Source: Patescibacteria group bacterium (GTDB lineage: Bacteria > Patescibacteriota > Patescibacteriia > CAIXNZ01). From it: a stretch of DNA of 64,000 nt. The stretch lies in contig JBAZJU010000008.1 in NCBI GenBank assembly GCA_041651155.1, positions 1,932 to 65,931 on the forward strand. Reading direction: 5' to 3'. Of this stretch, positions 7,163 through 27,437 are shown one piece after another; within the stretch, counting starts at the first letter, position 1; each line of letters opens with the position of its first letter. The notes below the pieces were generated by a model, which did not search any database, was not told the origin of the DNA, and saw nothing but the letters and a program-made list of their open reading frames with translations. The translations under genes and the position numbers were made by a program.

Positions 7163-10100
7163 TTATTTTTCATAGACCACAAAAATCGTTATCACATCCC
7201 CTTCTGTCCAGGTACCGCCCAATTTATCCACTCTGATAGCCGAGCCGTCATATTCAATCCTGTTTTCCGTATTAGTACTCCAAAAATCCTGATCGCCATA
7301 AACATTGCCGCTGACCACATAATGAACGCCATGCAAACTGGCAATTTTGTCTTTTGTGGCTTTTGCCCATGATTCTGAAAAATATGTATTTGTAACATCA
7401 TCGCTGGTTATTGTATGCCTGATTAGATCAGAAGCTAAAAATTCGTTGTCATTTGTCTTTAAATAATTTGAGGCTAAATCTCCTGTTGTTTTTAAACTTT
7501 GATCAAAAATGAATTGCGTATTAGTGGCATCCCAGATTAAATTGCCATAGTTGCTGCCCATATTGCCAAAAGATATCAAATTATAAATAGTATCGCTGCC
7601 TGAAACAGAAGAAGCCGCATTCCAAATTTTTAGAGGGTAAGTTGTGTTATTATTACTGTTAAAAAGTCCGGCAATAATTCCGTCACCGCTAGTATAATTG
7701 TTTAAAACTAATAATGAAGCCAGGCCTGAAATACCGCCTCTGCTGTTTATAACCATCTTATCAGGGTTGTCTGTTGCTCTGGCAATAATGTCTCCTAAAT
7801 TTAAAAGCTGGCTTTTATAAATAACTAGACTGTCCAAAATGCCTTTATAAAAATTACCGGACGAATCTTTGCCAATGTATAAATCAGCCGCATTATCCAG
7901 ACTGCCGGTTACACTGGTAATATTTTGGATGTATGTTAATGAACCATCATAAGCCATAGTGACATTACTGGAACGATCAAAGGCAATTAAAACATGATGC
8001 CACTTGCCATCATTTAAAGCATATCCGCCTGCTACATTTGTGCTATAAGTATTGGTGCCATCTCCGATAAAAAAACCGATTTTATTATTAGAATCAAAAT
8101 AAACTTCATAGCCGGCATCCCCGCTTCTTTTGGAAATAATCCTTTTATTTGTCTGGTCACTTGAATCTGCTTTGAGATAAAATTCCAGAGAAAAATTATC
8201 AGTGCCCATATTTAAATTAGCGCTGTCTGTCAAAGTCAGATAATCTGAAAGTCCGTTAAATCCCAAACCATAGCCATAATATCCTTTTTGCCAGGTTGTG
8301 CCTGTAATCGTAGGATCATCAGCCAGGGTAATATTTGAGGTAGTTGTCCCCTGCCCTTCGGCAAAGGCCAGGCCGACTGCCTTGCTATCATTGCTAAAAT
8401 AAACCGGATCTGCCTTATCTTTTTCATTAGTACTGGCTGGCAAGCCGATTAAACTGCCGACAGGCGAAGAAATATTGCCATCGCTCAAATTATTAGCCAC
8501 ATAAAGATTTTCAAATGCAGAATTAAAATGATTTTTGACTTCTGCAGGCGTTAAAACATCATCATAAATAGCGACACTATCAATTTCACCATCAAGTGAA
8601 GTATTTGGGCTGCCTGCTGAACCAAGATAGAATTTATCAAACCTGCTTATGTCTAAATTTGAATATGCAGTACTTAAGGCAAATTGCCCGTCACCATAAA
8701 AAGATACATTCCCTGAATCCCAGGCAATTACAACATAATGCCAGCTAGTATCCGGGATACTGCCCAGAGGAATCTTTGTGTCTCCTACCTTGAAATACAT
8801 ATCGCTCTGATTTTCTTTGGCAAACACAATTTCATTGGAAGTGCTTTCCGCCAGTCTAAAAGCATAATTATCAGCTGAGGCGGTTATATCATTAAATTTT
8901 ACCCAAAACTCAATTGAACCCTGAGTTGATGATAAGCCGGGATCTGCAAAAGACACTGAATCGCCATCAGCGCCAAATTTCATGCCATAGCCAATATAGC
9001 CTGAATTTGTCCAGTCAGCATTGCCATTGACAGTACCATTGGCATTGCCAGCCAGATCCGTGACAGTGGAACCGACAGAATCAGAAAAATCATAGGCTAA
9101 TTTTTTATTTTCATCACTATAATGCGTGTAATCCTGCGAATTTGCGCGATTTGCTAAATAAGGCATTTGATTCGGCAGATAAGTTTCAGCGCTGAATTTA
9201 ATACGCTGATAAAAATTATCCCAGGCCAGATAGCCCTCGCCTGTATTTTCATCATCGCTAGATTCAAGATAAATTGTGTGGGTTGTAATTTTGTTGCTAT
9301 GGATATTTTGCCTATTGTCATCTGCATATATTCTTTTTATTTCATCCGGGCTTAAAGCTCTATTAAAAACTTTAACTTCATCAAATTGTCCCCTGGCATA
9401 ATTGGCCGCATAATTGCCGATATTAAATGCGCCGGTCAAATTTTCCATGCCAGCATATGATGAGCTGTTGCTTTCATTGACAGTATCATCAACTTCTATT
9501 CCATTAATATATAATTTTATTCCGGCCGATGTTTTTGAACTATCATAAGTCGCAATCACATTAGCCCACTCCCCTTCATAGCTTGTTAAGGCGGTATTAA
9601 ACATTCTACCCAAATAAGTATTGGTCTGGCTTTGATCAATCAGCTGCAGATTAATCTTATCATCAGCATTAATATAAAATTTATATTCGTCATCAGCAGA
9701 ACCTGTGCCTTTGCTGGCAATTATAAAATTAGTGGCTTCATCCATTTTTATCCAGGCTGACAATGTGAAAGCCGAATCATCTGTGCCATTGCCAAAGCTT
9801 AATTTATCATCATCAGCTACTGAAAAATATTGATTAAGACCATCAAGAGTCAAAACATCATTAGCAGCACTGGCGCTGTTTTCCAATGTTCCAGTTAAAC
9901 CATTGGGGCTGCTATCATCTGAATTCCCATTAAAGCCATAATCTGCGACCAAAGAACTATCTATAATTTTTGGCACGCTCAAATTTCCGGTCATTTCACC
10001 GCCTTCAATCTGAACAAAATCTGCAGATCCCTTGCCATTCAATTTGTCAGCATTCATGGCATAAGGCGTAGCTGTAAATCTTTTTCTGGGCAAAAATACT

Positions 10101-10675
10101 TCTTCAAAAGTGCCATTAGCGTCATAATCCAATTCAACTTGCAAATAAAAACTGTCAGTGGAAAATGTTACGCCGCCATTGGAAGCGCAAGTGCCGACCC
10201 AGTTGCCGCACAACGAATTTAATTCAACTGTAAAAATGCCGTCATTCACCTGAACTTTACTGCCGCTTGTGCCTTGATTTGTGCCATCCCAATTTTCCGC
10301 CCAAAGAAGGTTTCCGCTGGTAGCTTGGCTGTATATCCTAAAACGCATATCATAAAGTCCGTCCGGCGGAGGCACTCCGTCGGCATTGGTTATTTTACCC
10401 TGATAGGTCAAAGTATCACGGATGCCTTCAGTCGCAAAAATTGTATTTCTATAAATAAAATAAAGATAGCCTATTATTAAGGCAATCTGCAGGCCGATTA
10501 CAAAAATAATCAAAAATGATTTTAAAGACCTTTTAATACTGCTAAAAAATATCCCTAAAAATTTAGGCCTGTTACCCCCAGCCCTTTTAGCTCCTCCCTG
10601 CGCTATTTTTTTATTTTTCTTTAACATAAGCAAATTAAAAGTTGCCCACGGCTGTAACAGTAACTGTTTGGGCAT
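7163..10675 (-). CDS. giant membrane-anchored surface protein with three LamG-like (concanavalin A-like lectin) domains
   Basis: 1170 aa. N-terminal TM. Three copies of the LamG_3-type motif (GQFDEVKVFNRALSPDEIKRIY, GEIDSVAIYDDVLTPAEVKNHF, GILDSLVIYKSQLLNLGDII), S/T/N/G-rich. The first 14 codons overlap the upstream gene; an alternative start ATG at 10627 (MLKKNKK...) avoids the overlap. Confidence 0.7.
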   Translation of the reverse strand: MPKQLLLQPWATFNLLMLKKNKKIAQGGAKRAGGNRPKFLGIFFSSIKRSLKSFLIIFVIGLQIALIIGYLYFIYRNTIFATEGIRDTLTYQGKITNADGVPPPDGLYDMRFRIYSQATSGNLLWAENWDGTNQGTSGSKVQVNDGIFTVELNSLCGNWVGTCASNGGVTFSTDSFYLQVELDYDANGTFEEVFLPRKRFTATPYAMNADKLNGKGSADFVQIEGGEMTGNLSVPKIIDSSLVADYGFNGNSDDSSPNGLTGTLENSASAANDVLTLDGLNQYFSVADDDKLSFGNGTDDSAFTLSAWIKMDEATNFIIASKGTGSADDEYKFYINADDKINLQLIDQSQTNTYLGRMFNTALTSYEGEWANVIATYDSSKTSAGIKLYINGIEVDDTVNESNSSSYAGMENLTGAFNIGNYAANYARGQFDEVKVFNRALSPDEIKRIYADDNRQNIHSNKITTHTIYLESSDDENTGEGYLAWDNFYQRIKFSAETYLPNQMPYLANRANSQDYTHYSDENKKLAYDFSDSVGSTVTDLAGNANGTVNGNADWTNSGYIGYGMKFGADGDSVSFADPGLSSTQGSIEFWVKFNDITASADNYAFRLAESTSNEIVFAKENQSDMYFKVGDTKIPLGSIPDTSWHYVVIAWDSGNVSFYGDGQFALSTAYSNLDISRFDKFYLGSAGSPNTSLDGEIDSVAIYDDVLTPAEVKNHFNSAFENLYVANNLSDGNISSPVGSLIGLPASTNEKDKADPVYFSNDSKAVGLAFAEGQGTTTSNITLADDPTITGTTWQKGYYGYGLGFNGLSDYLTLTDSANLNMGTDNFSLEFYLKADSSDQTNKRIISKRSGDAGYEVYFDSNNKIGFFIGDGTNTYSTNVAGGYALNDGKWHHVLIAFDRSSNVTMAYDGSLTYIQNITSVTGSLDNAADLYIGKDSSGNFYKGILDSLVIYKSQLLNLGDIIARATDNPDKMVINSRGGISGLASLLVLNNYTSGDGIIAGLFNSNNNTTYPLKIWNAASSVSGSDTIYNLISFGNMGSNYGNLIWDATNTQFIFDQSLKTTGDLASNYLKTNDNEFLASDLIRHTITSDDVTNTYFSESWAKATKDKIASLHGVHYVVSGNVYGDQDFWSTNTENRIEYDGSAIRVDKLGGTWTEGDVITIFVVYEK

Positions 10676-12707
10676 AAGAGCCTGCTTCTGTCGTACCAGT
10701 TATGACAGCGGCATGGCATAAGGTCGTTGAATCAGAACTGATCGGCCCTGTAGCAGAAGCAAATGATTGATCGCTGGTTAATAAAACTGAAGCTGGCATA
10801 GCTGTAGCCAATTGATTGGCTAAATTACTGCAAGCAGAGCCTGAATTATTTTGTGTAATTGTTTCACCGGCCTTTGAAGTTGAAACTCCGTATTCTTCTT
10901 CTGTAGAAACTCCTCCAATATTTGTCACTCCCACATCGCCATCAGCCACATCGCTTATTTGATTGGCGGCATTTCTCAGCATGCCATCTGCTCTAATATA
11001 GGCAGTATAGCCTAAGCTGCCATTGGTGCTAATTTGCGTATCATAATTGCAAGTGCTCAAGCCAGCAGCGCTGAAAGTGCCTAAACTGCAGTTTGCGGCT
11101 GACAATGACAGAGTTAAAGTTGCATCAACTGCGGCTGAGATATCAACTGTATCTTCCTGATCAATTATCCAATGGGTAAAATAAATTTCATTATTGCCGT
11201 CAATGTTATCCTGCCAAATGACATTGGGCAGATTGGTATTTCTTAGCACAATTTCAGGATAATCCGAAAAACTGTTGCCATTATCAGATAAATTATCTGT
11301 GCCTGCTACATCCCCCATTTTGGTCCAGCCAAGGCCTGGAGTCCATTTGCGAAAATATATTTCGTAATTATAAACGCTCACGGCTTCCCGCCAAACAATA
11401 TTCGGAAAGCCCTGAGAGCTAAGTCCTATTTTGGGATATCTTGAAGCAGTTGCCGTGTTTGAGACATTATCATGCCCCAGAGTGCCATCCATTTTTGTCC
11501 AGCCAACACCCCCAGTCCATTTAGTGAAATAAATATCTCTAGTGCCTGTGGTGGCATCATCCCAGACAACGTTGGGTATGTTTGATTGGTCAAGTTTAAA
11601 ATCAATGCTATCGGAATCGCCCAAGGTATTGGAAATATTTTCATAGCCTAAAGTGCCATCCATTTTTGTCCAGCCTGTGCCTGGCTGCCACTTGGTAAAA
11701 AATATCTCCCCATTTGCGCTTGTGACATCTCTCCAGATAATAATAGGAAAGCCTAATGAATCAAGACGCATTTTTGGCAAACCTGATGCAGATGAATTAT
11801 TGGAAACATTATCCGCGCCTGGAGTACCGTCCATTTTGGTCCAGCCAACTCCCTGAGTCCATTTCTTAAAATAAATATCACCATTTCCTGTTAAATCAAC
11901 AGACCAAGTAAGGCAAGGGTTATTTGAGGAATCAATCGCAAATTGTGCTAAATGTGAATTATTGCCGCTATCATTTGAAACATTATCAGTGCCTGGAGTA
12001 CCATCCATTTTGGTCCAGCCAACTCCAAAAGTCCATTTACGGAAATAAATCTGCGTTTTACCATTAACAGGTTCTTCCCAAGCAATATAAGGATTATTAT
12101 CATTATCTATGGCAAATTGAGTTGAGCCAGAATTTAAAGCCGTACCAGAAACATTATCAGTACCAGCCGACCCATCCATTTTTGTCCAGCAATCATCAAT
12201 CCCAGCACCGCAGACACCTGAGCCGGCACCCACTGTCCATTTTCTAAAAAAAATTTCATAATTTCCAGTGGAATTATCCAGCCAGACTAAATAAGGAGTA
12301 CCTGAATCTGTCAGTGAAAATTTTGGCAAAGTTGAGCTGCCAGAATCATTAGAAACGTTTTCTGAACCTTCACTGCCATCCATTTTTGTCCAGCAACCAT
12401 TACCTCCACATCCAGTCGCTGTCCACTTGCTAAAAAAAATATCACTATTTCCAGTAGTACTATCAATCCAAATTGCATATGTATTATTATAAGCATCAGC
12501 CATAATTTGCGGTGCGATGGATGAGCCTGTATTATTGGAAATATTTTCACTAATATCTGTCCTGTCCATATTTTTCCAAGAGGCAAAAACTTCTTTGGTA
12601 AAAATCTGGCTGGTAACAATAATTACAATACCAAAGCAAAAAAGCCCAATTTTTCCTATTTTCCATTGGTTATTTAAATTAAAATACAATGGCTTTCTTT
12701 TAGTCAC
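10635..12707 (-). CDS. secreted repeat protein: about nine ~48-aa propeller-like repeats plus the conserved C-terminal VVGNF-family domain
   Basis: 690 aa with a signal/TM N-terminus. Repeats share IYF(R/T)KWT.G.GWTKMDGT.G.DNVSN; the repeat is also visible as a ~144-bp periodicity in the DNA. The C-terminal ~170 aa is homologous to the C-termini of 12745..13791, 13845..14930 and 16616..17686 and ends AVGNF. Confidence 0.7.
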   Translation of the reverse strand: MTKRKPLYFNLNNQWKIGKIGLFCFGIVIIVTSQIFTKEVFASWKNMDRTDISENISNNTGSSIAPQIMADAYNNTYAIWIDSTTGNSDIFFSKWTATGCGGNGCWTKMDGSEGSENVSNDSGSSTLPKFSLTDSGTPYLVWLDNSTGNYEIFFRKWTVGAGSGVCGAGIDDCWTKMDGSAGTDNVSGTALNSGSTQFAIDNDNNPYIAWEEPVNGKTQIYFRKWTFGVGWTKMDGTPGTDNVSNDSGNNSHLAQFAIDSSNNPCLTWSVDLTGNGDIYFKKWTQGVGWTKMDGTPGADNVSNNSSASGLPKMRLDSLGFPIIIWRDVTSANGEIFFTKWQPGTGWTKMDGTLGYENISNTLGDSDSIDFKLDQSNIPNVVWDDATTGTRDIYFTKWTGGVGWTKMDGTLGHDNVSNTATASRYPKIGLSSQGFPNIVWREAVSVYNYEIYFRKWTPGLGWTKMGDVAGTDNLSDNGNSFSDYPEIVLRNTNLPNVIWQDNIDGNNEIYFTHWIIDQEDTVDISAAVDATLTLSLSAANCSLGTFSAAGLSTCNYDTQISTNGSLGYTAYIRADGMLRNAANQISDVADGDVGVTNIGGVSTEEEYGVSTSKAGETITQNNSGSACSNLANQLATAMPASVLLTSDQSFASATGPISSDSTTLCHAAVITGTTEAGSYAQTVTVTAVGNF

Positions 12708-12744: not shown

Positions 12745-13791
12745 CTAAAAATTACCTACGACTGTAATCGTCACTGTCTGAGCATAAGCGCCTGCCGGGG
12801 TTGTGCCAGTGATCACTGCCGCATGGCATAAGGTAGTTGAATCAGCACTCACGGGCGCTGAAGAAGTGGCAAATGACTGGTCACTTGTTGTTAAAGCTGA
12901 ACCTGGCATGGCAGTTGTCAACTGACCATCCAAAGTTGCACAATCAGAGCCTGAATCATTGTCTACTATCGTAGATGATGCATTTGTTGTAGAAATGCCA
13001 TATTCTTCTTCTGTAGAAACTCCGCCGCTATTGGTTACACCCACGGTCGCATCTGCCACATTGGTTATGCTATTTGTGGCATTTCGCAAATTGCCGTCTG
13101 CTTTAATATACGCTGTATAGCCTGAATCAGCATTGGTGCTTACTTCTGTATCATAACTGCAGGTGCTTAAACCTGTTGTGCTTAATGTGCCTAAAGTGCA
13201 GGTAGAGGTAGATAAGGACAGAGTTAATGTTGGCTCAACTGTAGCCGAGATATTTACCTGGTTTAAGCCAACAACTATGGCTGCGCCGCCGCTATCTTCC
13301 TGGGTATCAGCATTGGTATCGCTGCCGCCCCAGGCATTATCAGCGCCCAAATCCCAGGTTGTAATAGCAAAAGAAGCTGAACCGGCAGTAGGATTGGTGA
13401 TATGGTTATTTGAAATCGTAATAGTAATTTGGCCTGAAACCTGATCGCCTTCTGTTGTAATCGGAATTTGCAAATTTTGTCCACTCACACTGGCTGTCCC
13501 CTTGGTGATATCTGTGGTTGTATGAGTTTGAGTAACTGCCACATCACCGTTAACTACGTTAGAAATGACATAGCCTGCCGGAAAAGTAATTTTAATGCCA
13601 TCCCCGCTATTTATATTGCCGTCAGGATTAAAAATAATCGTGGCATTTGTCGCTGCGCTGGCAGTGTAATTTGATAAAGTAATGCTCACCACGCTTATAC
13701 CGCCGGCTAAGGCTGGCAAAGCAGTAAAAGTGTTTAATACCATCAATAAAACCGCCAGTACAATTGAAAAAAATTTAAAATGTTTGTTCAT
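12745..13791 (-). CDS. secreted surface protein, paralog family (variable N-domain plus conserved C-terminal domain ending VVGNF)
   Basis: 348 aa. Signal peptide MNKHFKFFSIVLAVLLMVLNTFTALPALA. TWDLGADNAWGG motif. The C-terminal ~170 aa is nearly identical to the paralogs, with conserved Cys pairs. Confidence 0.7.
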   Translation of the reverse strand: MNKHFKFFSIVLAVLLMVLNTFTALPALAGGISVVSITLSNYTASAATNATIIFNPDGNINSGDGIKITFPAGYVISNVVNGDVAVTQTHTTTDITKGTASVSGQNLQIPITTEGDQVSGQITITISNNHITNPTAGSASFAITTWDLGADNAWGGSDTNADTQEDSGGAAIVVGLNQVNISATVEPTLTLSLSTSTCTLGTLSTTGLSTCSYDTEVSTNADSGYTAYIKADGNLRNATNSITNVADATVGVTNSGGVSTEEEYGISTTNASSTIVDNDSGSDCATLDGQLTTAMPGSALTTSDQSFATSSAPVSADSTTLCHAAVITGTTPAGAYAQTVTITVVGNF

Positions 13792-13844: not shown

Positions 13845-14930
13845 TTAAAAATTTCCGACAACAGTGACAGTCACAACCTGGGCATAAGCGCCTGCAGGTG
13901 TTGTGCCCATAATAACAGCTGCATGGCACAAAGTCGTTGAATCAGCGCTCACTGGACTTGTCGCTGTGGCAAAAGACTGATCGCTGGTTGATAAGGCTGA
14001 ACCGGGCATCGCAGTTGTTAATTGGCCATCTAAAGTTGCGCAATCTGTGCCTGAATCATTTTCCACTATTGTAGAAGATGCATTAGTCGTGGAAATGCCA
14101 TATTCTTCTTCTGTAGAAACTCCGCCGCTATTAGTTACGCCCACGGTCGCATCAGCCACATTGGTTATGCTATTTGTGGCATTTCTCAAATTGCCGTCTG
14201 CTTTAATATAAGCTGTATAGCCTGAATCAGCGTTTGTGCTAACCTCAGTATCATAGCTGCAGGTGCTTAAACCGGTTGTGCTTAATGTACCCAAAGCGCA
14301 GGTCGTGCCTGACAAGGTTAAAGTTAAGGTTGGATCAACTGTGCCTGAAATATTAACCTGGTTTGTGCCAATCACTACCGCTGCATAAGAACTGTCTAAT
14401 ATTGTATCAGCATCAGCTCCAGTTCCCCCCCAAGCCTCATCAGCGCCTAAATCCCAAATTCCAAGTGTAATTTTCTGAGTGCCTGAAGATGAAGGCGTAG
14501 TAATATGGCTGTTGGCAATTGTAATCGTCACTGCTCCGCTGGGCGTATCACTTTCTGTGGTAATGGGAATTGCCAGTACATTTTGGAGGCCAATGCCACC
14601 TACGATTGCTGTTCCTTTAGTGATATCTGTGGCAGTATGCGCCTGAGTTACTGTCACGTCTCCATTGACAACTGGGGCAGTGGAAAGATCAGAATTATCA
14701 AACTGAACCGTTATCCCATCTCCAGTATTAATATTACCGTCTGGATCAAAGCTAACCGTTGTTGTGTTAATAGCTGTATTGACAGCTGAGACATTGTTCC
14801 CGCTGGCATCGTGATAAGTAACAGAAATATCGGCCAAACCGGCATTAGCGTAATTTTGGGCAAGACCACTTCCTCCTAAAATGATTACCATTGCCATAAA
14901 AATGTAAAAAAGCTTCGTTTTCTTAATCAT
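13845..14930 (-). CDS. secreted surface protein, paralog family (conserved C-terminal domain ending VVGNF)
   Basis: 361 aa. Signal peptide. IWDLGADEAWGG motif. The 3' half is near-identical at DNA level to 16616..17686. Confidence 0.7.
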   Translation of the reverse strand: MIKKTKLFYIFMAMVIILGGSGLAQNYANAGLADISVTYHDASGNNVSAVNTAINTTTVSFDPDGNINTGDGITVQFDNSDLSTAPVVNGDVTVTQAHTATDITKGTAIVGGIGLQNVLAIPITTESDTPSGAVTITIANSHITTPSSSGTQKITLGIWDLGADEAWGGTGADADTILDSSYAAVVIGTNQVNISGTVDPTLTLTLSGTTCALGTLSTTGLSTCSYDTEVSTNADSGYTAYIKADGNLRNATNSITNVADATVGVTNSGGVSTEEEYGISTTNASSTIVENDSGTDCATLDGQLTTAMPGSALSTSDQSFATATSPVSADSTTLCHAAVIMGTTPAGAYAQVVTVTVVGNF

Positions 14931-15110: not shown

Positions 15111-15473
15111 TTAATCTTTTTTATACTTTAATACACGTAAGTACGTATCAACAAATCTTAAAATTATAACCAAGATTAATGCTAAAATTACCATGATTAA
15201 CGCCATCAGCCCCCAACTGGCTGCTTGATCATAAATTGTCTGAACTTCCCCGGTGACTTCTTTTTGTTGCAAACCCAATGATTTTTCAAAAAAATATTGG
15301 TATTTATTTTCTTTGGTCATTACGGACTGGGTTGGCTGAGTGGAAATATTTTTATTTAATTCTGTTTCTGGCACAATGCCGTAAACATTCACATCCGTCT
15401 GCCCATGACTTACGGATAAATAAAAAAAATTTATCAATATTGCCGCTAAACCAATTAAAATAATTTTACGCAT
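15111..15473 (-). CDS. small secreted protein with a C-terminal TM anchor and basic tail
   Basis: 120 aa. Signal peptide MRKIILIGLAAILINFFYLSVSHG. C-terminal TM followed by RFVDTYLRVLKYKKD. Confidence 0.45.
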   Translation of the reverse strand: MRKIILIGLAAILINFFYLSVSHGQTDVNVYGIVPETELNKNISTQPTQSVMTKENKYQYFFEKSLGLQQKEVTGEVQTIYDQAASWGLMALIMVILALILVIILRFVDTYLRVLKYKKD

Positions 15474-15563: not shown

Positions 15564-16538
15564 TTATTTCTTAGCTTTGCCGTATTTCTTCAAAATCCAT
15601 TTGTTATATTTCTTGATAGCAAAATACAAGATTACAACAATAATGACTATTATTAACAAATTAACAATAATTATATTCCATGGGATTACCATGAATGTAG
15701 TTGAGGCTGTTAAAGTATTGCCTGCTGTGCCATAAGCCAAGCTTAAATCAGCGGTATAACTGCCAAAAGCAAAATTTTCTTTTTCCTGCATATATTTGCC
15801 CCAGAATGTGGTTGCGCCTACTGCATTAGGATCTTTTAACCAGCCAGCATCAAATTTTCTGATTTGGTCAGGCAGGACATTGCCACCTGCTTCATTGACA
15901 GCAACTTTGCCGGCAACAGCTCCCCACATGTTTTTAATCGTAATTGTTCCCATTGGCTTTAAATGGACATTACCGTCATTTTTTACTCTCACGCTAAAAT
16001 CTACTGGCAGTGAACTAAAAGTTTTACCAGCTGTGCTGAATTCTGCAATTTGCGCGCTTTCTTTAATTTCACCTGCAATTCTAACCAAAATCAAAGTGCC
16101 AATACGGCTGGCAATAGATACTTGAGAACCTGCATTGGCAGCTTCCGGAGGCGCAGTGCTCAAAAATATAGCAGCATAATGACCGCCTGGCCCGGCATAA
16201 TTAGGTACGATAATTGAAAAAGGCACTTCCACTGTAGAACCTGCTGGAACAGTGATACTCTGGAATGGAAACTTTATCCAGGTAGCTAAATCCACGTCTT
16301 CACCTGTAAAAGATGGTTCTCCTGCTTCACCGCCTGCCACAAATCGTTCTGCTGATAAGTAATAAGTGGCTGCTGCCGCACCTTCATTACGAACCTTAAT
16401 TGATTGATTTATCACATCGCCTTTCGCAGCGTCAATCTCAATTATAGGCGGTGATACTGTAACAGCAGAACTTGCTAAAGGCAGAAGTAAGCCGACAGCA
16501 AGCAGGGCAATTACCAATGAGAAAATTTTTGTTTTCAT
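15564..16538 (-). CDS. DUF916-like cell-surface protein: signal peptide, beta-rich ectodomain, C-terminal TM anchor with KK-rich tail
   Basis: The ORF track extends to 16559. The likely start is the second Met (MKTKIFSLVIALLAVGLLLPLASSA, a good signal peptide), preceded by GGAGGGTGAGGGG. The C-terminus is IIIVNLLIIVIIVVILYFAIKKYNKWILKKYGKAKK. The architecture matches DUF916/CscA-type proteins of WxL clusters; the assignment is by architecture, not by a strong motif. Confidence 0.55.
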   Translation of the reverse strand: MKTKIFSLVIALLAVGLLLPLASSAVTVSPPIIEIDAAKGDVINQSIKVRNEGAAAATYYLSAERFVAGGEAGEPSFTGEDVDLATWIKFPFQSITVPAGSTVEVPFSIIVPNYAGPGGHYAAIFLSTAPPEAANAGSQVSIASRIGTLILVRIAGEIKESAQIAEFSTAGKTFSSLPVDFSVRVKNDGNVHLKPMGTITIKNMWGAVAGKVAVNEAGGNVLPDQIRKFDAGWLKDPNAVGATTFWGKYMQEKENFAFGSYTADLSLAYGTAGNTLTASTTFMVIPWNIIIVNLLIIVIIVVILYFAIKKYNKWILKKYGKAKK

Positions 16539-16615
16539 ATTTTTCCCCTCACCCTCCATTGCTTAAAGCAGCGGAGGGCAAATTTAATTTTTATAATTTA
16601 TTTTAATTATTTATT

Positions 16616-17686
16616 TTAAAAATTACCAACAACTGTAATTGTCACAACCTGAGCATAAGCGCCTGCAGGTGTTGTGCCCATAATAACAGCGGCATGACAC
16701 AAAGTCGTTGAATCAGCGCTCACTGGACTTGTCGCTGTGGCAAAAGACTGATCGCTGGTTGATAAGGCTGAACCCGGCATCGCAGTTGTTAATTGGCCAG
16801 CTAAAGTTGCGCAATCAGAGCCTGAATCATTGTCCACTATTGTAGAAGATGCATTTGTTGTGGAAATACCGTATTCTTCTTCTGTGGAAACACCGCCGCT
16901 ATTAGCTACGCCCACGGTTGCGTCAGCAACATTGGTTATGCTATTTGTGGCATTTCTCAAATTGCCGTCTGCTTTAATATAAGCTGTATAGCCTGAATCA
17001 GCGTTTGTGCTAACCTCAGTATCATAGCTGCAGGTGCTTAAACCGGTTGTGCTTAATGTACCCAAAGCGCAGGTCGTGCCTGACAAGGTTAAAGTTAAGG
17101 TTGGATCAACTGTGCCTGAAATATTAACCTGGTTTGTGCCAATCACTACTGCCGCATAAGAACCATCTAAGACTGAATCAGCATTTTCGCCAGTGCCGCC
17201 AAAAGCATTGTCAGCGCCTAAATCATAGAGAACAATTGTGATTTTATAGGTGCCTGATGTAGTAGGGGTTGTAATGTGACTATTGGAAATAGTAACCGTC
17301 ACTGCGCCACTCGGCGTGTCGCTTTGGGTGGTAATTGGGATTAAAACGCTTTGGATAACTCGAACCGCAGTACCTTTTATTATATCTGTGCCGCTATTTG
17401 CCTGGGTGATAGCAACATCACCGTTAACAACGCTAGCAACGCCAAAATTATCTTGGAATTGAATCTCTAAAGCATCTCCTGTGCTGAGATTGCCATCGGG
17501 ATCAAAGCTAATTGTGGTTGTGTTAACAACCGTATTAACTGCTGAGATATTATTTCCGCTGCCATCATGCAATGTAACGGAAACTGCGCTTAACCCGGCG
17601 TTAGCGACATTTTCTGCAAAAAACCCTCCCCCTAAAATTGTCACTATTGCCATAAAAATGTAAAATAGTTTTGCTTTCTTTACCAT
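16616..17686 (-). CDS. secreted surface protein, paralog family (conserved C-terminal domain ending VVGNF)
   Basis: 356 aa. Signal peptide. The N-domain resembles that of 13845..14930. The C-terminal domain is near-identical to the paralogs. Confidence 0.7.
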   Translation of the reverse strand: MVKKAKLFYIFMAIVTILGGGFFAENVANAGLSAVSVTLHDGSGNNISAVNTVVNTTTISFDPDGNLSTGDALEIQFQDNFGVASVVNGDVAITQANSGTDIIKGTAVRVIQSVLIPITTQSDTPSGAVTVTISNSHITTPTTSGTYKITIVLYDLGADNAFGGTGENADSVLDGSYAAVVIGTNQVNISGTVDPTLTLTLSGTTCALGTLSTTGLSTCSYDTEVSTNADSGYTAYIKADGNLRNATNSITNVADATVGVANSGGVSTEEEYGISTTNASSTIVDNDSGSDCATLAGQLTTAMPGSALSTSDQSFATATSPVSADSTTLCHAAVIMGTTPAGAYAQVVTITVVGNF

Positions 17687-17890: not shown

Positions 17891-18601
17891 CTAAAAAACT
17901 GGAATAAATTCATAAGTCAAAGTAGCGCCATAATTGCCAGCGTTTGTTTCAGGAGCAATATTCACAATTACCGAAACAGTAAAATCAGTCTGGTAAGAAA
18001 AACTTAATGACTGGGCAATAATATCACCGTCGTTATAAGCAAATTTATTTGTTGTATTATAATTTGGCGTTGCCCAACCAATCCCGCCCAAAGGGTCTGA
18101 GCCGATTAAAGGCACAGAATTACTCACTAAATTAATGCCAAATTGTTCAGTCCCCGGCTCAGAATCTGCAGCGACACTGCCTATTGGAGTGACGGCATGT
18201 TCCGAACTATGCAAAGATTCACCGATTATTTTTATAGTATAACCAGCTTTGGAATTTGTGTATGCTGAAAAAGTATGGCTGGAATAGGCTGTTGACGACG
18301 GAGAAAGCTCTCCAAAATTTAAACTGACTAACTGAACGCTAAATCCAATTGTCGGCTCAGCGCCAATGCCTGAAAAGCTTGGCTTTTCTTTAAAATTCAT
18401 GCTTTGGGAATTGGCGCCAGCTTGATCTGTGAAATTTGAGTCAATTGCATAATTTTCTGAAGACAAAGCGCCTCCGCCTGAACTTAAATTATCCAGCCAG
18501 ACTTTATAATTATTGCTGGACATGGCGGCTATTGCTTGTTTGCCAAAAGCCGCAAAACCAAACAATAAAAAAAGTATTAAAATTTTATTTAACTTGACCA
18601 T
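17891..18601 (-). CDS. secreted protein with a WxL-like C-terminal end (ends AGNYGATLTYEFIPVF)
   Basis: 236 aa. Signal peptide MVKLNKILILFLLFGFAAFGKQAIA. VWLDNL motif near the N-terminus. The C-terminal pattern parallels the AGAYAQTVTITVVGNF end of the paralog family. Confidence 0.5.
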   Translation of the reverse strand: MVKLNKILILFLLFGFAAFGKQAIAAMSSNNYKVWLDNLSSGGGALSSENYAIDSNFTDQAGANSQSMNFKEKPSFSGIGAEPTIGFSVQLVSLNFGELSPSSTAYSSHTFSAYTNSKAGYTIKIIGESLHSSEHAVTPIGSVAADSEPGTEQFGINLVSNSVPLIGSDPLGGIGWATPNYNTTNKFAYNDGDIIAQSLSFSYQTDFTVSVIVNIAPETNAGNYGATLTYEFIPVF

Positions 18602-18619: not shown

Positions 18620-20830
18620 CTATTTTTTTGCGCCCTTCTTTATTATCTTCTTTCTTAAAGCCAACAAAGCTGCAAAAAATAACAGAATTATTAAGAATAC
18701 AAGCCAAAACCACCAGGGAATTTTTAATTCTTGTCTTGGCACGAATTTTTCTTTTAGCGTTAGAGAAACCTGTTCCGATGGTTCTGAATTAAGCCCATTT
18801 ATACTGGCAATAGCGTATAAAGTATAACGGCCCGGCTCTAAAATTTTTTCTAAACTAATCATCCATAATCCCTGTTCGCTTGCTTTAGTTGAAACAATTA
18901 TTTCAGGCGAGGCTGCTAAGTGCAGAGTAACAAGGGAATTTTTCTCAGCCCGTCCGGTTATCATTAGCACATTTTTTACAAAAAACCTGCCGATCTGTTC
19001 AGGCATTATAATATGATCGATAAAGGGAGGAGCCACTGCTTTAATAGCAGGCTGGATTAAATTATATGTTGCCGGTTCTTTGTTTATGACTGTAAAATTT
19101 TGCAAATCAATATAAGCTTCAATGGCATTGCCGGCATTGTCAACTGCACGTAAAGATAATATTTTGCCAAGTTTGTCTGATTCATTTAAAACATAAGGGC
19201 TTTGCGCCTTTTGCCACTCTCCATTATCAATTTTCATTTCATAATAAGCAACCCCGGAACTCTTATCCAAAGCTGAAAAATAGAGTTTATATTGCTTGCT
19301 GCCGTCTGCTAAAATTCCTGTCTCAATGCTGGGTTTAAAAAATTCCGGCGGAGAGGTATCAATCTTAACTTGATAATGCGCTGTCGGACCCCAGCCATCA
19401 ATATATTTGACTTTAAGGTGAAAATACCAAAACCCATCAGCAATATTACTAAAAGCAAAAAGCTTATCCTGGCTGGAATAATAGCCAATGCTTGGATCAG
19501 CTAATGGATTTTGATCTAAATTAAAAGTATAACCTAGGCCTTCATCGGCAACTTGCCAGGCAAACTGAGGTTGATTATTGGCATACCATTGATTTTGCTC
19601 AGGATGGCTTGGCGAACTAATTATTGGCGATGTTTTATTGGACGTTTCTGTAAAATTTTGTTCTGCGCATACAGGCAATGGGCAACTAAACGACCCTCCT
19701 CCGCAAGGAGGACACTGGCCACCAAAAACAGTAACTCTAACGCTTAAATTAGAGCTCAAAGGATTAGTAATATTATTATCAAGAGCTTTAAAAACAGCAT
19801 AGTAAATCCCAGAATTTGTTGGTGCCCAACTAAATCTTGAAGTTGAAGTTATACCCGTAATAATTGGGTTTAAAGTTGCATTTTCCAGAGGTTCCAGGCT
19901 CAAAACAATATTATCATTATCTGGATCAGTGGCAGTTATATTAAATGTCAAAGTTTCGCCGGCATTAACTGTTTTTTCCGGGATTGGATCAAAGACAGGC
20001 TGATGGTTTTGTGGCGGAACTGGTTCTGAAACTCCAATACTTACTGTTAACGTAGAACTTTTTGATCCCAAGTCACTATCATCTACTGCGACAAATGAAG
20101 TTGTAAATACTCCCTTGCTTTGGGGTGTCCAATTGAAATCACCATAAACAATACTGGCGTTATTTGTAATGTTGGCCATCGTGGCATCTGCAGGAATATT
20201 CCAATTTAAATTGACAATATCATCATCAGGATCAGCGGCTTGAAGATGAAAACTTACTGTCTCCCCCAAATTAATTTGCTTATTGCCAACCGGCTGAAAA
20301 ACCGGCGCCAAATTTGCCGGAGGTGGTGGTGGCGGCGCGCCAATGACATTAATTGTAATTCCCTGGCAACCGCTTAAATCAATTTGTTCTGTTTGATCCA
20401 CTGCAATTAAATGCGAACCGGCAGCAAAGGAAATTGTTGAGGAGCCAACCTGAGAAGCTTTAAAAATCAAAGTGCCGAACAATGAATTAGAATTCACGGA
20501 ATCAACCAAAACAAAGCCACCGACATTAATATGATTGCTGGAATTATTCAATTCCCTGCCAGGACTTTGATTTGGCCAAGCAGTACCCAAACTAAAATCG
20601 TTAATGGAAATGACATTGCCGCTTGTATAATCCAAAATTGCCCTGACTGTATTTAAAGCAGCGCCATTAGGCTCAACCATAATATCAACATAAATGGTAT
20701 CTCCCACATAATAATCTGTTTTAGCTGAAATTAGCCTCATTATAGCACTCCCAGCTGCTTGGACTGGAATAATAGGCAAAATAAAACTAACTAGCAATAA
20801 AGATAGAATGATTTTTATTATTTTTTTCAT
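18620..20830 (-). CDS. membrane-anchored surface protein: N-terminal cohesin-like domain, Pro-rich linker, cadherin-like/Ig repeats, C-terminal TM with basic tail
   Basis: The ORF track extends to 20896. The probable start is MKKIIKIILSLLLVSFILPIIPVQA (signal peptide) at 20830. The cohesin-like segment is AIMRLISAKTDYYVGDTIYVDIMVEPNGAALNTVRAILDYTSGNVISINDF...GTLIFKASQVGSSTISF. PPPPPP linker. Repeats with ADPDDDIV / TDPDNDNIV. C-terminal WWFWLVFLIILLFFAALLALRKKIIKKGAKK. Confidence 0.6.
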   Translation of the reverse strand: MKKIIKIILSLLLVSFILPIIPVQAAGSAIMRLISAKTDYYVGDTIYVDIMVEPNGAALNTVRAILDYTSGNVISINDFSLGTAWPNQSPGRELNNSSNHINVGGFVLVDSVNSNSLFGTLIFKASQVGSSTISFAAGSHLIAVDQTEQIDLSGCQGITINVIGAPPPPPPANLAPVFQPVGNKQINLGETVSFHLQAADPDDDIVNLNWNIPADATMANITNNASIVYGDFNWTPQSKGVFTTSFVAVDDSDLGSKSSTLTVSIGVSEPVPPQNHQPVFDPIPEKTVNAGETLTFNITATDPDNDNIVLSLEPLENATLNPIITGITSTSRFSWAPTNSGIYYAVFKALDNNITNPLSSNLSVRVTVFGGQCPPCGGGSFSCPLPVCAEQNFTETSNKTSPIISSPSHPEQNQWYANNQPQFAWQVADEGLGYTFNLDQNPLADPSIGYYSSQDKLFAFSNIADGFWYFHLKVKYIDGWGPTAHYQVKIDTSPPEFFKPSIETGILADGSKQYKLYFSALDKSSGVAYYEMKIDNGEWQKAQSPYVLNESDKLGKILSLRAVDNAGNAIEAYIDLQNFTVINKEPATYNLIQPAIKAVAPPFIDHIIMPEQIGRFFVKNVLMITGRAEKNSLVTLHLAASPEIIVSTKASEQGLWMISLEKILEPGRYTLYAIASINGLNSEPSEQVSLTLKEKFVPRQELKIPWWFWLVFLIILLFFAALLALRKKIIKKGAKK

Positions 20831-20837
20831 AGATTGA

Positions 20838-20928
20838 AATAAGTAATAAGAAATAAGAAATATGGAATTGGAATTATTTAAATAATCATTTTTCACTTTT
20901 CCTTATTACCTATTTCCTATTACCTATT
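20838..20928. repeat. inverted arrays of AATAAG / CCTATT hexamers between the cohesin-like and dockerin genes
   Basis: aataagtaataagaaataagaaata ... ccttattacctatttcctattacctatt. Read directly from the sequence. Confidence 0.5.
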
Positions 20929-20931
20929 ATT

Positions 20932-22248
20932 TCAATATATTCCATCCCAATGTGCTGCCAAACCCGATAAATCAAAATCATCAACAATACTATCTTCATT
21001 AAAATCAGCATAGCACCAATTTGCCTGCCAGTGATAAGCCAAACCAGCTAAATCAAAATCGTCTATTTTGCCATCATTATTTGTATCACCTGTTTTGCTA
21101 CGTACCACTGTGGCGTTTAAAATATCGCTATTTTGGCCATAGCTATCGCGAGCAAAAATCAAAAAAAGATTATTCCCCAAAATCAAATTAACCAATGTAT
21201 TCCAAGTTGTCTGAGTCGGATAATTAATAATTCCTGATAAATCATTAATCTGAATAATAGTATTGTCTGGCTTTGTCCCGCTTAAAGTTGCGGTTGGCAA
21301 AAAAATCGGGCATGCTCTAGCGTCTAGTGTTGGCATCGCTGGCCGAGGCGGATAAATATGTCCCCCTCCCGTTATAAAACCGTGCACTTCGTTTGAAGGG
21401 GCAAAAAGACTTTCTGTATCATAAACATAAACTTTAAAATAGTAATCCTCATTAACATCCAAATCATTAATTGTGTACGTTGTCTGCGTCCTGTTATTAA
21501 AGGTTGCCACCAGATCTCCGGTCAGGTTAGTTAAGCCTGGCGTTTCAGACATATAGACCTCGTAGCGTTCAAAATCTAAATCAATATTTTGCGTCCAATT
21601 TAAAATTGCTGAAAGTGTTTGGGTATATTCTGCTTCACTTAAAATAACTGGATTAGGCGGTGCTCCAGCTGTCTGGCCGCCCACGCCAATTTGATCAACA
21701 AAAATCGCTACTGCCAATTTGCCAGAGTCTCCATAATTTCCAGACAAAGTAATTATTTTTGAACCGATTGTGGCTGGATTAATGATCTGATGACTGCCGC
21801 CATTGGCGTTTAGGCCGATTCTAATTACGACTTTGTCATTTGGTAAAATATCGCCATTGGCATTATCAGTCGGGTGCATTAAATCTAGATGACTGCCAGA
21901 AATAGTTATCCCCCAATTAGTGGCATTGGCGCTTGAAGCTAAAGTTTCATTGGTTTCCAGGCCAGTTATAGGTCCATGCAATAAATCAATATCTGCGAAA
22001 GTAATTGCGGATAAATTAAACCCACTGTCAAAAATTATTCTTAAATATTGTCCGCTTTCACCTATTCCACCTGGCGTGTTAAATTTTATTTCATGATTTG
22101 CAGCCACCAAAGGCGCCTGTCGGTTCATTCTATCGCTCAAAGCGCTTAAACTGGAAGCCTTGGAATTTTCCGGCAACACAAAAATTATAGTGATTAAAAA
22201 AATACTAAAAATTATCCAAATTTTATTATTTCCTCTATGTTTAAACAT
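20932..22248 (-). CDS. secreted protein with a fibronectin type III domain and a C-terminal type-I dockerin
   Basis: 438 aa with a signal peptide. FN3-like segment (YEVYMSETPGL...YYFKVYVYD). Duplicated Ca-binding dockerin repeats: DTNNDGKIDDFDLAGLAYHW and DFNEDSIVDDFDLSGLAAHW. Confidence 0.7.
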   Translation of the reverse strand: MFKHRGNNKIWIIFSIFLITIIFVLPENSKASSLSALSDRMNRQAPLVAANHEIKFNTPGGIGESGQYLRIIFDSGFNLSAITFADIDLLHGPITGLETNETLASSANATNWGITISGSHLDLMHPTDNANGDILPNDKVVIRIGLNANGGSHQIINPATIGSKIITLSGNYGDSGKLAVAIFVDQIGVGGQTAGAPPNPVILSEAEYTQTLSAILNWTQNIDLDFERYEVYMSETPGLTNLTGDLVATFNNRTQTTYTINDLDVNEDYYFKVYVYDTESLFAPSNEVHGFITGGGHIYPPRPAMPTLDARACPIFLPTATLSGTKPDNTIIQINDLSGIINYPTQTTWNTLVNLILGNNLFLIFARDSYGQNSDILNATVVRSKTGDTNNDGKIDDFDLAGLAYHWQANWCYADFNEDSIVDDFDLSGLAAHWDGIY

Positions 22249-25846: not shown

Positions 25847-26141
25847 GACAAATGAAGAACGTCGGGAATTTAAAAAAAAGTATAAGTCACAACCCTACAC
25901 ACCACCGCCTATAAAAAAACGTCACATTACTCAGACAACCTTCACAAAACAGATAGGAATTAACAAAGAAACAGCAAGGGAGCTGAAGGAGATTCAGGCT
26001 AAAGCCAAAAAGAAAAAAGGTAAGACCAGCTTTGCAAAGGATTTAAAGAAAGCCTTCAAAGTGGCTGAAAAGGTCCAAAAGCGGCTTAAAGAAATATCCA
26101 GAGTAGATGAAGACCGACTCCGCACCAGGATGACAATTTGA
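25847..26141 (+). CDS. small basic protein, unknown function (GTG start inferred)
   Basis: The ORF frame is open from 25764. The only well-placed start is the GTG at 25847, preceded by AAGGAGG; the in-frame ATG upstream would overlap the previous gene. Product VTNEERREFKKKYK...RLRTRMTI is very basic. Confidence 0.4.
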
Positions 26142-26169
26142 TCTTTCAGGACGCCAAAGGAGGTTTAAA

Positions 26170-26346
26170 ATGTCTGAGAAAAAAATCGATCGCTTGGGGC
26201 GAAAAGAAAATATCTGGCCCAGGAAGGAACTTGAACGAATTTTTGAATTAGCTAAACGAGATGAAATACGATGGGAAAAGATGCAAAAAATTGACGAATC
26301 CAAACTTCGCCAAAGAATCACTTTCCCTGGCTTTGAAAACTTATAA
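26170..26346 (+). CDS. small charged protein (58 aa), unknown function
   Basis: SD AAAGGAGG 7 nt upstream of the ATG at 26170. Product MSEKKIDRLGRKENIWPRKELERIFELAKRDEIRWEKMQKIDESKLRQRITFPGFENL. Below the 60-aa ORF-track cutoff. Confidence 0.4.
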   Translation: MSEKKIDRLGRKENIWPRKELERIFELAKRDEIRWEKMQKIDESKLRQRITFPGFENL

Positions 26347-26356
26347 GGAGCTGAAA

Positions 26357-26800
26357 ATGAGGAAAAAGCTTGACAGAGAGCAATTTCTAGGCCCCAAGGG
26401 TTCTGAATTAAGAAAGTTCATGGAGCGACCTGGCTGTTATTACCCAGGCTCGGATGGAATTGACGAAGAAACAGCAAGAAAGCTCAATGAGCACATAGAT
26501 AAAGCTCATCGAGGCGAATTAAAAGGAGGATTCCCTAAAGAAGTGCTGGAAAGAGAAAAGCGACTCAAGTTTCCCAGAAAGAGAAAAAGTTTCAACAGAG
26601 ATAAATTCCTCGGACCTCCGGGTTCTGAATTAAGAAAACTCATGATGCGACCTGGGCGTCTGGAGCTAGGTCCGGAAGGAATTGACGAAGAAACTGCCAA
26701 GAAACTAAATGAACTATTCGAAAAAGTCGAACGTGGCGAAGTCCCCGAAGGAATTCCACAGCACGTTCTTGAACGGGAAAAACAACTAAGATTCTGCTAG
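26357..26800 (+). CDS. small protein made of two tandem ~65-aa repeats (FLGPxGSELRKxMxRPG...GIDEETAxKLNE...VLEREKxLxF), unknown function
   Basis: The ORF track begins at 26261. The likely start is ATG 26357 (MRKKLDREQFLGP...), preceded by TAAGGAG. The internal duplication is obvious in the translation. Confidence 0.5.
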   Translation: MRKKLDREQFLGPKGSELRKFMERPGCYYPGSDGIDEETARKLNEHIDKAHRGELKGGFPKEVLEREKRLKFPRKRKSFNRDKFLGPPGSELRKLMMRPGRLELGPEGIDEETAKKLNELFEKVERGEVPEGIPQHVLEREKQLRFC

Positions 26801-26809
26801 TGCAAAACT

Positions 26810-26835
26810 AAAAGGCGCCAATAAGCGCCTTTTAA
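26810..26835 (+). terminator. intrinsic terminator after the four-gene small-protein run
   Basis: aaaaggcgc-caataa-gcgcctttt hairpin followed by a T-rich tract. Confidence 0.5.
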
Positions 26836-26903
26836 AATTGGCTTTTGTGCTTGACAACCAGCTAAATTTTTGCTTAACTTAAAGCAAATTTAAACAAAGG
26901 TCT

Positions 26904-26930: not shown

Positions 26931-26950
26931 CGGACCGAGGGGAGGGAAAA

Positions 26951-27429: not shown

Positions 27430-27437
27430 TTTCCAGC

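Follow-up and report, generated by a model that had tools for sequence, protein, structure and literature searches.

A candidate cohesin-dockerin tether in a Pam-type pilus operon of a Patescibacteria group bacterium

The stretch analyzed here (the window) comprises 64,000 nucleotides of contig JBAZJU010000008.1 (assembly GCA_041651155.1) from a Patescibacteria group bacterium. Two adjacent genes on its minus strand, which we call A and B, encode a secreted protein that ends in a dockerin and a membrane-anchored protein that carries a divergent cohesin directly past its signal peptide. An earlier note on this DNA, made from the sequence and correct in the strand and position of both open reading frames (ORFs), had read the two as a minimal surface display scaffold. 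We propose, with a confidence that is about evenly balanced, that A and B form a non-cellulosomal cohesin-dockerin pair within a Pam-type pilus operon and that this pair would tether the pilus to the cell. The features of the two genes are listed below.

Gene A, 20932..22248, minus strand: ORF of 438 amino acids, secreted, dockerin-bearing and apparently pilin-derived (NCBI WC460_05720, annotated as hypothetical)
A residues 32-182, 21703..22155, minus strand: beta-sandwich homologous to the N-terminal domain of Pam pilins; predicted local distance difference test (pLDDT) >90 in the AlphaFold2 (AF2) model
A residues 184-200 (VDQIGVGGQTAGAPPNP), 21649..21699, minus strand: segment that aligns with the pilin linker (donor) strand; candidate donor strand
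A residues 206-293, 21370..21633, minus strand: FN3 domain (Pfam fn3, E 4e-6 over residues 213-288; AF2 strands)
A residues 313-383, 21100..21312, minus strand: immunoglobulin (Ig)-like domain (AF2 model)
A residues 387-438, 20935..21090, minus strand: duplicated dockerin, two calcium loops and two helices
Gene B, 18620..20830, minus strand: ORF of 736 amino acids counted from MKKIIK; membrane-anchored stalk protein with an N-terminal cohesin (domain scans)
B residues 1-25: signal peptide
B residues 26-165, 20336..20755, minus strand: divergent cohesin domain, 140 amino acids
B residues 166-691, 18758..20335, minus strand: stalk (Pfam, NCBIfam, sequence)
B residues 166-171: PPPPPP linker
B residues 173-264 and 282-370: two PKD/Big_9 Ig-like repeats
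B residues 373-388: cysteine-rich stretch CPPCGGGSFSCPLPVC
B residues 517-569: OmpL47-type domain, 'SSPSHP..WY' module
B residues 624-691: Big_13 Ig domain
B residues 704-725, 18656..18721, minus strand: C-terminal transmembrane (TM) helix IPWWFWLVFLIILLFFAALLAL, followed by the basic tail RKKIIKKGAKK

An entry identical to A was present in a public sequence collection, and more than 40 relatives were recovered in the search, around 30 of which were full-length (46-71% identity). The orthologues stem from the Parcubacteria group of the Candidate Phyla Radiation (CPR), more explicitly from Buchananbacteria, Uhrbacteria, Falkowbacteria and 'Parcubacteria'. In the AF2 model of the full-length protein (pLDDT 86.5, predicted template modelling score (pTM) 0.42) the domains are arranged as beads on a string, and the N-domain is modelled with confidence. 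A Foldseek search with this model returned generic tandems of FN3 and Ig domains only and none of the Pam pilin structures. The FN3 domain is missing from the Falkowbacteria orthologues, which are 332-334 amino acids long (loci L012 and L013), and the Ig-like domain is always located N-terminal to the dockerin, also in distant dockerin proteins of the cassette type described below, whose BLASTP matches correspond to A residues ~284-434. The absence of a glycoside hydrolase, which had been pointed out before, was confirmed: Pfam and NCBIfam detected neither such a domain nor any other carbohydrate-active enzyme (CAZyme) domain in A, and the Pfam domains were limited to fn3 and dockerin.

The layout that had been described for B, with its signal peptide, N-domain of ~140 amino acids, linker of six prolines, cysteine-rich stretch and C-terminal TM anchor, could be located in the sequence in full. 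The repeats that follow the linker had been called cadherin-like, but they are PKD/Big_9 Ig-like repeats and Pfam Cadherin was matched at an E-value of 0.2 only. An alternative start at GTG 20896 would lengthen the ORF. Given that the cohesin of B orthologues starts 27-33 codons downstream of the preceding stop, ATG 20830 is the likely start of B and the longer GTG form is unlikely. The SHP/OmpL47 module was found to accompany the cohesin also in minimal cohesin-TM proteins of ~410 amino acids. In three relatives of B (P0047, P0050 and P0051) the single C-terminal TM helix is replaced by a long multi-TM region and CarboxypepD_reg-like repeats (GRYLFLAKEMGRYYLEV...).

The dockerin of A and the cohesin of B

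The C-terminus of A contains two near-identical repeats of 20 residues each, DTNNDGKIDDFDLAGLAYHW (residues 388-407, nucleotides 21028-21087) and DFNEDSIVDDFDLSGLAAHW (residues 415-434, nucleotides 20947-21006), in which a calcium loop of the form DxNxDxxxxxxD is followed by a helix; the helices in the AF2 model span residues 397-405 and 424-431. A six-frame scan of the whole window yielded no other dockerin-type calcium-loop motif. When the complete protein was compared with Pfam Dockerin_1 (PF00404) it scored 21.2 bits, slightly below the gathering score of 22.9, and the isolated C-terminal 61-64 amino acids scored 25.5-25.7 bits, which is above it. Within the dockerin family 18 of the 19 members matched the same Pfam model. 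The dockerin is kept in 16/16 aligned A orthologues, with the consensus GDTNCNxxVDDFDLAGLAYHWxTNWCYADFNEDGIVDDFDLSGLAAHWDxVY, and residues D388, D396, D397, D399, D415, N417, D419, D424 and D426, among them all calcium-loop aspartates, are invariant. A dockerin profile that included the distant CPR members had its best match in the PDB to the non-cellulosomal dockerin of Clostridium perfringens NagH (2jnk/2ozn, E 9e-6), and type I dockerins of cellulosomes came next. Judged from these profiles and from the conserved repeats, the C-terminus of A is a true dockerin, and its earlier description as a duplicated type I dockerin is borne out.

The Pfam Cohesin model (PF00963) gave a divided result. 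No match was obtained for B or for its residues 26-165 alone, even at E<=10, and 33 of 45 aligned homologues matched the model individually, with a best E-value of 3e-12. These homologues were recovered by exhaustive searching. A word-indexed search with the N-domain of B returned 2 relatives only, and a phmmer search of the PDB sequences returned nothing significant, the best match (E 0.69) being an unrelated protein; when 1.84 billion representatives were searched exhaustively with HMMER, 196 homologues of the N-domain were identified (E<=1e-3). The domain is always found at the N-terminus of these proteins, directly past the signal peptide, and a crude scan indicated a C-terminal TM helix in around two-thirds of the 150 homologues that were listed. 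The family profile matched 23 PDB sequences, 22 of which were cohesins (best match 5g5d, E 2.5e-6). The AF2 model of the B domain had a pLDDT of 97.3 and a pTM of 0.91, and the top 50 matches of this model in a Foldseek search of the PDB were all cohesin modules (E 6e-8 to 4e-6, TM-scores of 0.62-0.80), including the non-cellulosomal module 2xdh of Archaeoglobus fulgidus and the cohesin-like modules 2jh2 and 2w1n of C. perfringens. Considering the matches of the homologues to PF00963, the matches of the profile to cohesins in the PDB and the agreement of the predicted fold, residues 26-165 of B are, by profile and model, a divergent but genuine cohesin with a beta-sandwich (jelly-roll) fold. 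The domain that had been termed 'cohesin-like' is thus recognized as a cohesin both by profile and by structure prediction. Since cohesins of the B type escape Pfam, the numbers of cohesins reported for CPR genomes are probably underestimates.

Beyond the single cohesin of B and its orthologues, neither the window nor any of the 12 orthologous loci introduced below yielded a further cohesin, and Pfam detected no carbohydrate-binding module (CBM). As there is neither a CAZyme domain nor a multi-cohesin scaffoldin, the pair does not represent a cellulosome, which agrees with the earlier note.

The pilus operon around the pair

The Pam pilus was reported in 2026 for Candidatus Mycosynbacter amalyticus (Troman et al. 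preprint, bioRxiv 10.64898/2026.03.03.709456). According to this preprint, in each Pam pilin a linker strand connects the N-domain to a truncated Ig C-domain, and this linker is donated to the C-domain of the adjacent pilin. PamT has a C-domain only and is the predicted tip subunit, the PamC/D chaperones are membrane-anchored, and PamR, in which an N-terminal strand precedes two FnIII domains and a TM helix, is the predicted end and anchor of the filament. In addition, a tail-fibre-like gene co-localizes with the pam operon, and the pili seem easily untethered. The preprint does not mention cohesin or dockerin. The genes downstream of B can be described in these terms as follows.

17891..18601, minus strand: PamT-like tip pilin, which starts 18 nucleotides past the B stop codon
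16616..17686, minus strand: Pam-type pilin with N-domain, linker and C-domain (NCBIfam NF058581 E 1.9e-7, below cut-off; alignment)
15564..16559, minus strand: PamC/PamD-type chaperone candidate with two Ig-like halves and a C-terminal TM helix, which fits the published description of PamC/D
15111..15473, minus strand: ORF for a protein of 120 amino acids with a signal peptide, the pilin-linker-like TDVNVYGIVPETEL, 'ENKYQYFFEK' and a C-terminal TM helix
13845..14930 and 12745..13791, minus strand: further pilins (weak NF058581 matches)
10635..12707, minus strand: beta-propeller pilin (weak NF058581 match)
7163..10675, minus strand: fibre-like protein of 1170 amino acids at the end of the cluster (NCBIfam TafC 6e-18, Bdello_MAT_N 1.5e-9)

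The PamT-like protein matched NF058579 (PamT) with an E-value of 4.8e-48 and 163.7 bits, which is below the equivalog cut-off of 240, and NF058581 (Pam pilin C domain) with 138.8 bits, above the cut-off of 55. The matches of the four pilins in the window to NF058581 were weak (E 3e-5 to 1.5e-8, 24-35 bits, below the cut-off of 55), and their architecture fits. The chaperone candidate matched no PDB sequence and no profile of PapD-like chaperones in Pfam or NCBIfam, and it shared 33.5% identity (E 2e-46) with the gene at the same position in a distant pam locus (L079). To evaluate the conservation of this organization we fetched 12 orthologous pam-type loci from Parcu-, Buchanan-, Uhr- and Falkowbacteria. 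The order A, B, PamT and pilin(s) was found in 12/12, with B directly after A, and the chaperone and then the small TM protein came next in each locus that was long enough. Every one of these loci, like the window, carries exactly one cohesin, at the N-terminus of B, and one dockerin, at the C-terminus of A. In seven of them (L001, L005, L006 and L008-L011) pilin genes, mostly of the beta-propeller kind, are located upstream of A as well, and A and B are therefore embedded in the pilus cluster. By profile and architecture the genes downstream of the pair are best read as a CPR Pam pilus operon, the product of which would be assembled by donor-strand exchange. The genetic adjacency on which the earlier note was built holds up, B being the next gene downstream of A on the same strand here and in all 12 orthologous loci; what had been missed is the context, as the two genes stand at the head of a Pam pilus operon.

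The connection between A and the pilus concerns the protein itself. In four of the loci the best match in the window of a pilin of 344-352 amino acids was A (residues ~1-192, BLASTP E 1e-15 to 1e-18), and an hhalign comparison of A and pilin gave a probability of 99.6% and an E-value of 1.6e-24, with A columns 6-199 aligned to pilin columns 1-189. The homology spans the signal peptide, the N-domain and the linker and ends around pilin residue 189, ~15-20 residues before the NCBIfam match to the Pam C-domain, which begins at residues ~205-208 in three pilins of the 344-amino-acid family (L003, L009 and L006). Within this region VDQIGVGGQTAGAPPNP of A is aligned with the pilin linkers TNQVNISGTVDP and SDMVGLKAKIEP, which are directly N-terminal to the pilin C domain, in such a way that 'DQIGVGGQTA' of A is opposite 'SDMVGLKAKIE' and 'NQVNISGTVD' of the pilins. 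Residues D185 and Q186 of the segment are invariant in the 16 orthologues and residues 187-191 have a pLDDT <50 in the AF2 monomer model, as one would predict for a strand whose folding depends on a partner. The acceptor C-domain (NF058581) was not matched in A at E<=1, and the FN3-Ig-dockerin part takes its position. Taken at the level of sequence homology, A is a pilin derivative in which the N-domain and linker were kept and the acceptor C-domain was replaced by FN3, Ig and dockerin domains, and we infer that residues 184-200 act as a donor strand. Able to donate a strand and unable to accept one, A would form the end of the chain opposite PamT in a donor-strand polymer. Whether A is indeed incorporated into the filament we consider an even call. 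The earlier label of a 'secreted FN3 protein' was right about secretion and the fn3 domain, but incomplete, given the homology of the N-domain and linker to those of pilins.

The protein of 120 amino acids introduces a second candidate for the end of the chain. Its pilin-linker-like sequence is TDVNVYGIVPETELNK, and in each of the 10 orthologous loci that are long enough the gene is kept, after that of the chaperone. We compared two distant pam loci, L079 and L080, which contain neither a cohesin nor a dockerin and the first of which has ATP synthase genes next to it, in agreement with the neighbourhood described for the Pam pilus. In L079 the position of the small protein is taken by a PamR-like protein of 333 amino acids that consists of GSVGLTGIVPASPP, two Ig domains and a TM helix, a layout that parallels the DQIGVGGQTAGAPP, FN3, Ig and dockerin of A; BLASTP gave no match between this PamR-like gene and A or B at 1e-3. 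In PamR a single protein combines the donor strand with two FnIII/Ig domains and a C-terminal TM helix; neither A, which has no TM helix, nor B, which has no donor strand, does so. The 120-amino-acid protein resembles a PamR without the Ig domains and is a candidate for a minimal PamR-like terminator or anchor.

One may picture a system in which termination and anchoring of the pilus are the task of this small protein, B forms a wall-spanning stalk of the assembly platform, and the contact between A and B serves as a guide, an exit collar or an alternative cap for released pili. The position and motif that the small protein shares with PamR-like proteins speak for such a platform, as does the reported ease with which Pam pili seem to become untethered (bioRxiv 10.64898/2026.03.03.709456). 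It can also be brought forward that A and the small protein are both kept in every locus that reaches far enough, which suggests that their roles are non-redundant. Nevertheless, A and B show no usher-like or pore-like feature and a subunit that can only donate is a chain end by construction, and we consider a platform of this kind very improbable.

Some further properties of the cluster were observed. The C-domains of the pilins form a direct repeat of four copies (10625-11143, 12735-13253, 13835-14353 and 16606-17124; 69-92% nucleotide identity), and the combination of near-identical C-domains and divergent N-domains suggests recent duplication or gene conversion. In the beta-propeller pilins a large N-terminal propeller with 'WTKMDG...DNVSN...' repeats is fused to the Pam C-domain; one or two copies occur upstream of A in L001, L005, L006, L010 and L011, and they may represent adhesin subunits of the pilus. 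The GTG-initiated ORF of the beta-propeller pilin in the window and the beginning of the fibre gene have 41 nucleotides in common (10635..10675, predicted starts). The cluster is flanked by housekeeping genes (a UvrD/PcrA-like helicase, ProS and MreBCD), and a scan for promoters and terminators between 7000 and 22600 stayed at background level and was uninformative with respect to operon boundaries. Of the ORFs of >=150 amino acids, 43/45 are located on the minus strand, and the GC skew is negative in every 2-kb bin except 26001-28000 (+0.02), which is consistent with one replichore of a small CPR genome of low GC content (30-41%).

Cohesin-dockerin cassettes in distant CPR genomes

The distribution of the pair beyond the pam-type loci was evaluated in 31 distant CPR cohesin loci, one from P0055 and 30 from a metagenome scan with a profile of 11 cohesin sequences. 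The cohesins in these loci share 20-38% identity with that of B, and in 28 of the 31 an ORF that ends in a dockerin is located directly upstream of the cohesin-TM ORF on the same strand. A frequent layout of such cassettes is a cohesin protein with repeats and without a TM helix, followed by the dockerin protein, the cohesin-TM protein and a fibre-like gene. The dockerin proteins have an A-like Ig-dockerin C-terminus and differ in their N-terminal parts. It thus appears that a pre-existing cohesin-dockerin anchoring module was joined to the pam operon in the lineage of the window, and that the dockerin protein gained the pilin N-domain and linker in the course of this.

Several observations on the cassettes concern their other parts. 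The upstream cohesin proteins (L059 5905-7350 and the equivalents in L049-L076) have no TM helix and contain several 'EQALVYFGAFYGRMPSS..DW..IHCIAYG' repeats, which are possibly cell-wall-binding, in analogy to S-layer homology (SLH) anchors. The dockerin proteins of L056, L059, L067, L073 and L078 have three N-terminal 'SSxNYxI'-like motifs, after which a cysteine-rich 'CGDGFIDPGE.CD' repeat is usually present; a relation of these motifs to the N-terminus of PamT (17891..18601) was considered and dropped, as a hidden Markov model of the motifs recovered no PamT at E<=0.01. An N-terminal fibre domain similar to that of the fibre-like protein in the window is encoded after the cohesin-TM genes of L055, L058-L060, L065, L073 and L076, a related fibre gene follows the PamR-like gene of L079 (15383-16231), and in P0108 the cohesin-TM protein is fused to a fibre-like protein.

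Two readings are conceivable for the adjacency of dockerin and cohesin genes, namely mutual binding and mere co-inheritance. According to the latter, the dockerin of A would be a calcium-stabilized module with another partner, such as a cohesin encoded elsewhere in the genome or the surface of a host, and the cohesin fold of B would bind something other than A. The divergence of the B cohesin, without a direct Pfam match, leaves room for this, and so do the cassette loci, where there are two cohesin genes per dockerin and the choice of partner is not self-evident; moreover, a transposon sequencing (Tn-seq) study in Saccharibacteria that found an essential dockerin-domain protein speculated on glycan targeting (PMC10633639). 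On the other hand, the gene that immediately precedes the cohesin gene on the same strand encodes a dockerin in 13/13 pam-type loci (the window and the 12 orthologous ones) and in 28/31 cassette-type loci, whose cohesins share 20-38% identity with that of B, and the ratio of dockerin to cohesin is 1:1 in the pam-type loci. Furthermore, the divergence of the dockerins follows that of the downstream cohesins (Spearman 0.80 over 35 unique pairs, a value confounded by shared phylogeny), and for 13 trios the coefficient was 0.52 with the downstream and 0.23 with the upstream cohesin. As the pairs are phylogenetically non-independent, this co-variation is suggestive only. Altogether, 1:1 adjacency and co-variation make binding between A and B probable in our view, and co-inheritance of modules that do not bind each other quite improbable. 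The large set of unrelated, dockerin-less partners that would have spoken against the pair did not turn up in the window or in the loci compared with it.

A proposed pilus tether and its relation to known systems

If A and B do bind, the pieces can be combined as follows. A signal peptide would direct the export of B and the C-terminal helix would fix the protein in the cytoplasmic membrane, with a ~530-amino-acid Ig-like stalk that presents one cohesin at the far N-terminal end. The pilus would grow from PamT, an acceptor only and located at the tip, by donor-strand exchange, with the membrane-anchored chaperone as a catalyst. A, being donor-only, would then complement the last pilin by occupying its groove with the linker, which ends the chain on the side of the cell, and finally the A dockerin would plug into the B cohesin with calcium, by which the filament is tethered through the stalk of B. 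The order of these events is part of the proposal. On this reading A and B are a split PamR whose parts are joined non-covalently, A contributing the strand, FN3, Ig and dockerin and B the TM helix. The wider claim, that the cohesin-dockerin contact is a load-bearing pilus tether (a split PamR anchor) and at the same time a widespread, unrecognized surface-anchoring module of the CPR in which the N-terminus of the dockerin protein is swapped between pilus-related and other cargo, is put forward tentatively, with somewhat less than even confidence.

Several observations weigh against a role in tethering the pilus. The cassette loci have no pam pilins and carry the dockerin-cohesin module beside a fibre gene, and the module is therefore not intrinsically a part of a pilus. 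The linker-like segment of A is rich in glycine and has a lower hydrophobicity than the linkers of the pilins, the linker motif (VNVYGIVPE) is better matched by the 120-amino-acid protein than by A, and the cohesin of B escapes Pfam. The small protein could, by its sequence features, be the real terminator and anchor; A and B, which would then have another role, may in that case add a further and longer tether, cap pili that are released, or serve in plain display. Plain display would mean that A is an Ig/FN3 adhesin that is held on B via dockerin and cohesin and never enters a pilus, that its N-domain is a recycled binding module, and that its place in the operon reflects the co-regulation of host-attachment genes. 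This fits the 28 distant loci with dockerin proteins of varied N-termini beside fibre genes, the glycine-rich segment, and a termination of the pilus that the small TM protein can explain. It does not account well for the fact that the homology of A to pilins runs on through the linker until shortly before the C-domain match, that D185 and Q186 are invariant in a linker-aligned segment that is predicted to be unstructured, or that pilin genes flank A on both sides in seven loci. Considering these constraints we regard plain display as unlikely. The notion of a minimal surface display scaffold can be maintained as far as the identities of cohesin and dockerin and their strict 1:1 adjacency are concerned, but given that A is a pilin derivative in a Pam operon, the item on display is probably the pilus and not a free cargo protein.

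Single cohesins and dockerins on proteins other than CAZyme scaffolds have been described before, e.g. the toxin complex of the NagH dockerin and NagJ cohesin of C. perfringens (PDB 2OZN, 2JNK) and the cohesin of A. fulgidus (PDB 2XDH), and A and B resemble these. The partners in those systems are glycoside hydrolases, toxins or unknown, whereas here they are a pilin-derived subunit and a TM-anchored stalk in a CPR pilus operon. In cellulosomes, anchoring scaffoldins such as SdbA and OlpB of C. thermocellum combine a cohesin with a cell-surface anchor. They share with A and B the logic of a cell-anchored cohesin that captures a dockerin-bearing extracellular assembly, and the duplicated, near-symmetric dockerin of A resembles type I. 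The differences are that B is anchored by a C-terminal TM helix and not by SLH modules, that a single cohesin is present without a CBM or enzymes, and that the proposed cargo is a filament.

For the termination of the chain a parallel can be drawn with PapH, the terminator of chaperone-usher pili, which donates a strand, is not complemented further and in this way ends polymerization at the base. PapH keeps the pilin fold and stays at the usher, whereas A has no acceptor domain and carries a dockerin. To our knowledge, CPR bacteria of this kind have neither an usher nor an outer membrane. A further parallel is the Pam pilus of M. amalyticus. It has a PamT-type pilin and a fibre gene in common with the window, where the weakly matching pilins fit the published architecture of N-domain, linker and C-domain and the chaperone candidate fits the TM-anchored PamC/D; PamR, like A as proposed here, is a proposed donor-only end of the filament that is tied to the membrane (bioRxiv 10.64898/2026.03.03.709456). 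PamR is one protein (strand, two FnIII domains and TM helix; compared by description), whereas the equivalent in the window would be split into A, with pilin N-domain, linker, FN3, Ig and dockerin, and B, with cohesin, stalk and TM helix. In full-text searches we found no literature that links dockerin or cohesin to pilins, donor-strand assembly or Pam pili. The system is not categorically new; what is new is the cohesin-dockerin joint in a donor-strand pilus operon together with the widespread and largely unannotated CPR cassette.

The CPR, or Patescibacteria, are ultra-small, mostly uncultivated epibionts, and their attachment to the host is a central question. In cells devoid of an usher and an outer membrane, the hold of the Pam pilus currently rests on one predicted anchor protein. 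If true, a cohesin-dockerin joint at the base of the pilus would supply a concrete anchoring mechanism built from two small domains, and it would be the first cohesin-dockerin system with a filament as cargo instead of enzymes or toxins. In that case cohesin-dockerin biology would reach beyond enzyme and toxin complexes, and the presence of dockerin and cohesin domains in CPR genomes that degrade no cellulose, including the essential dockerin-domain protein that was noted in Saccharibacteria (PMC10633639), would be explained.

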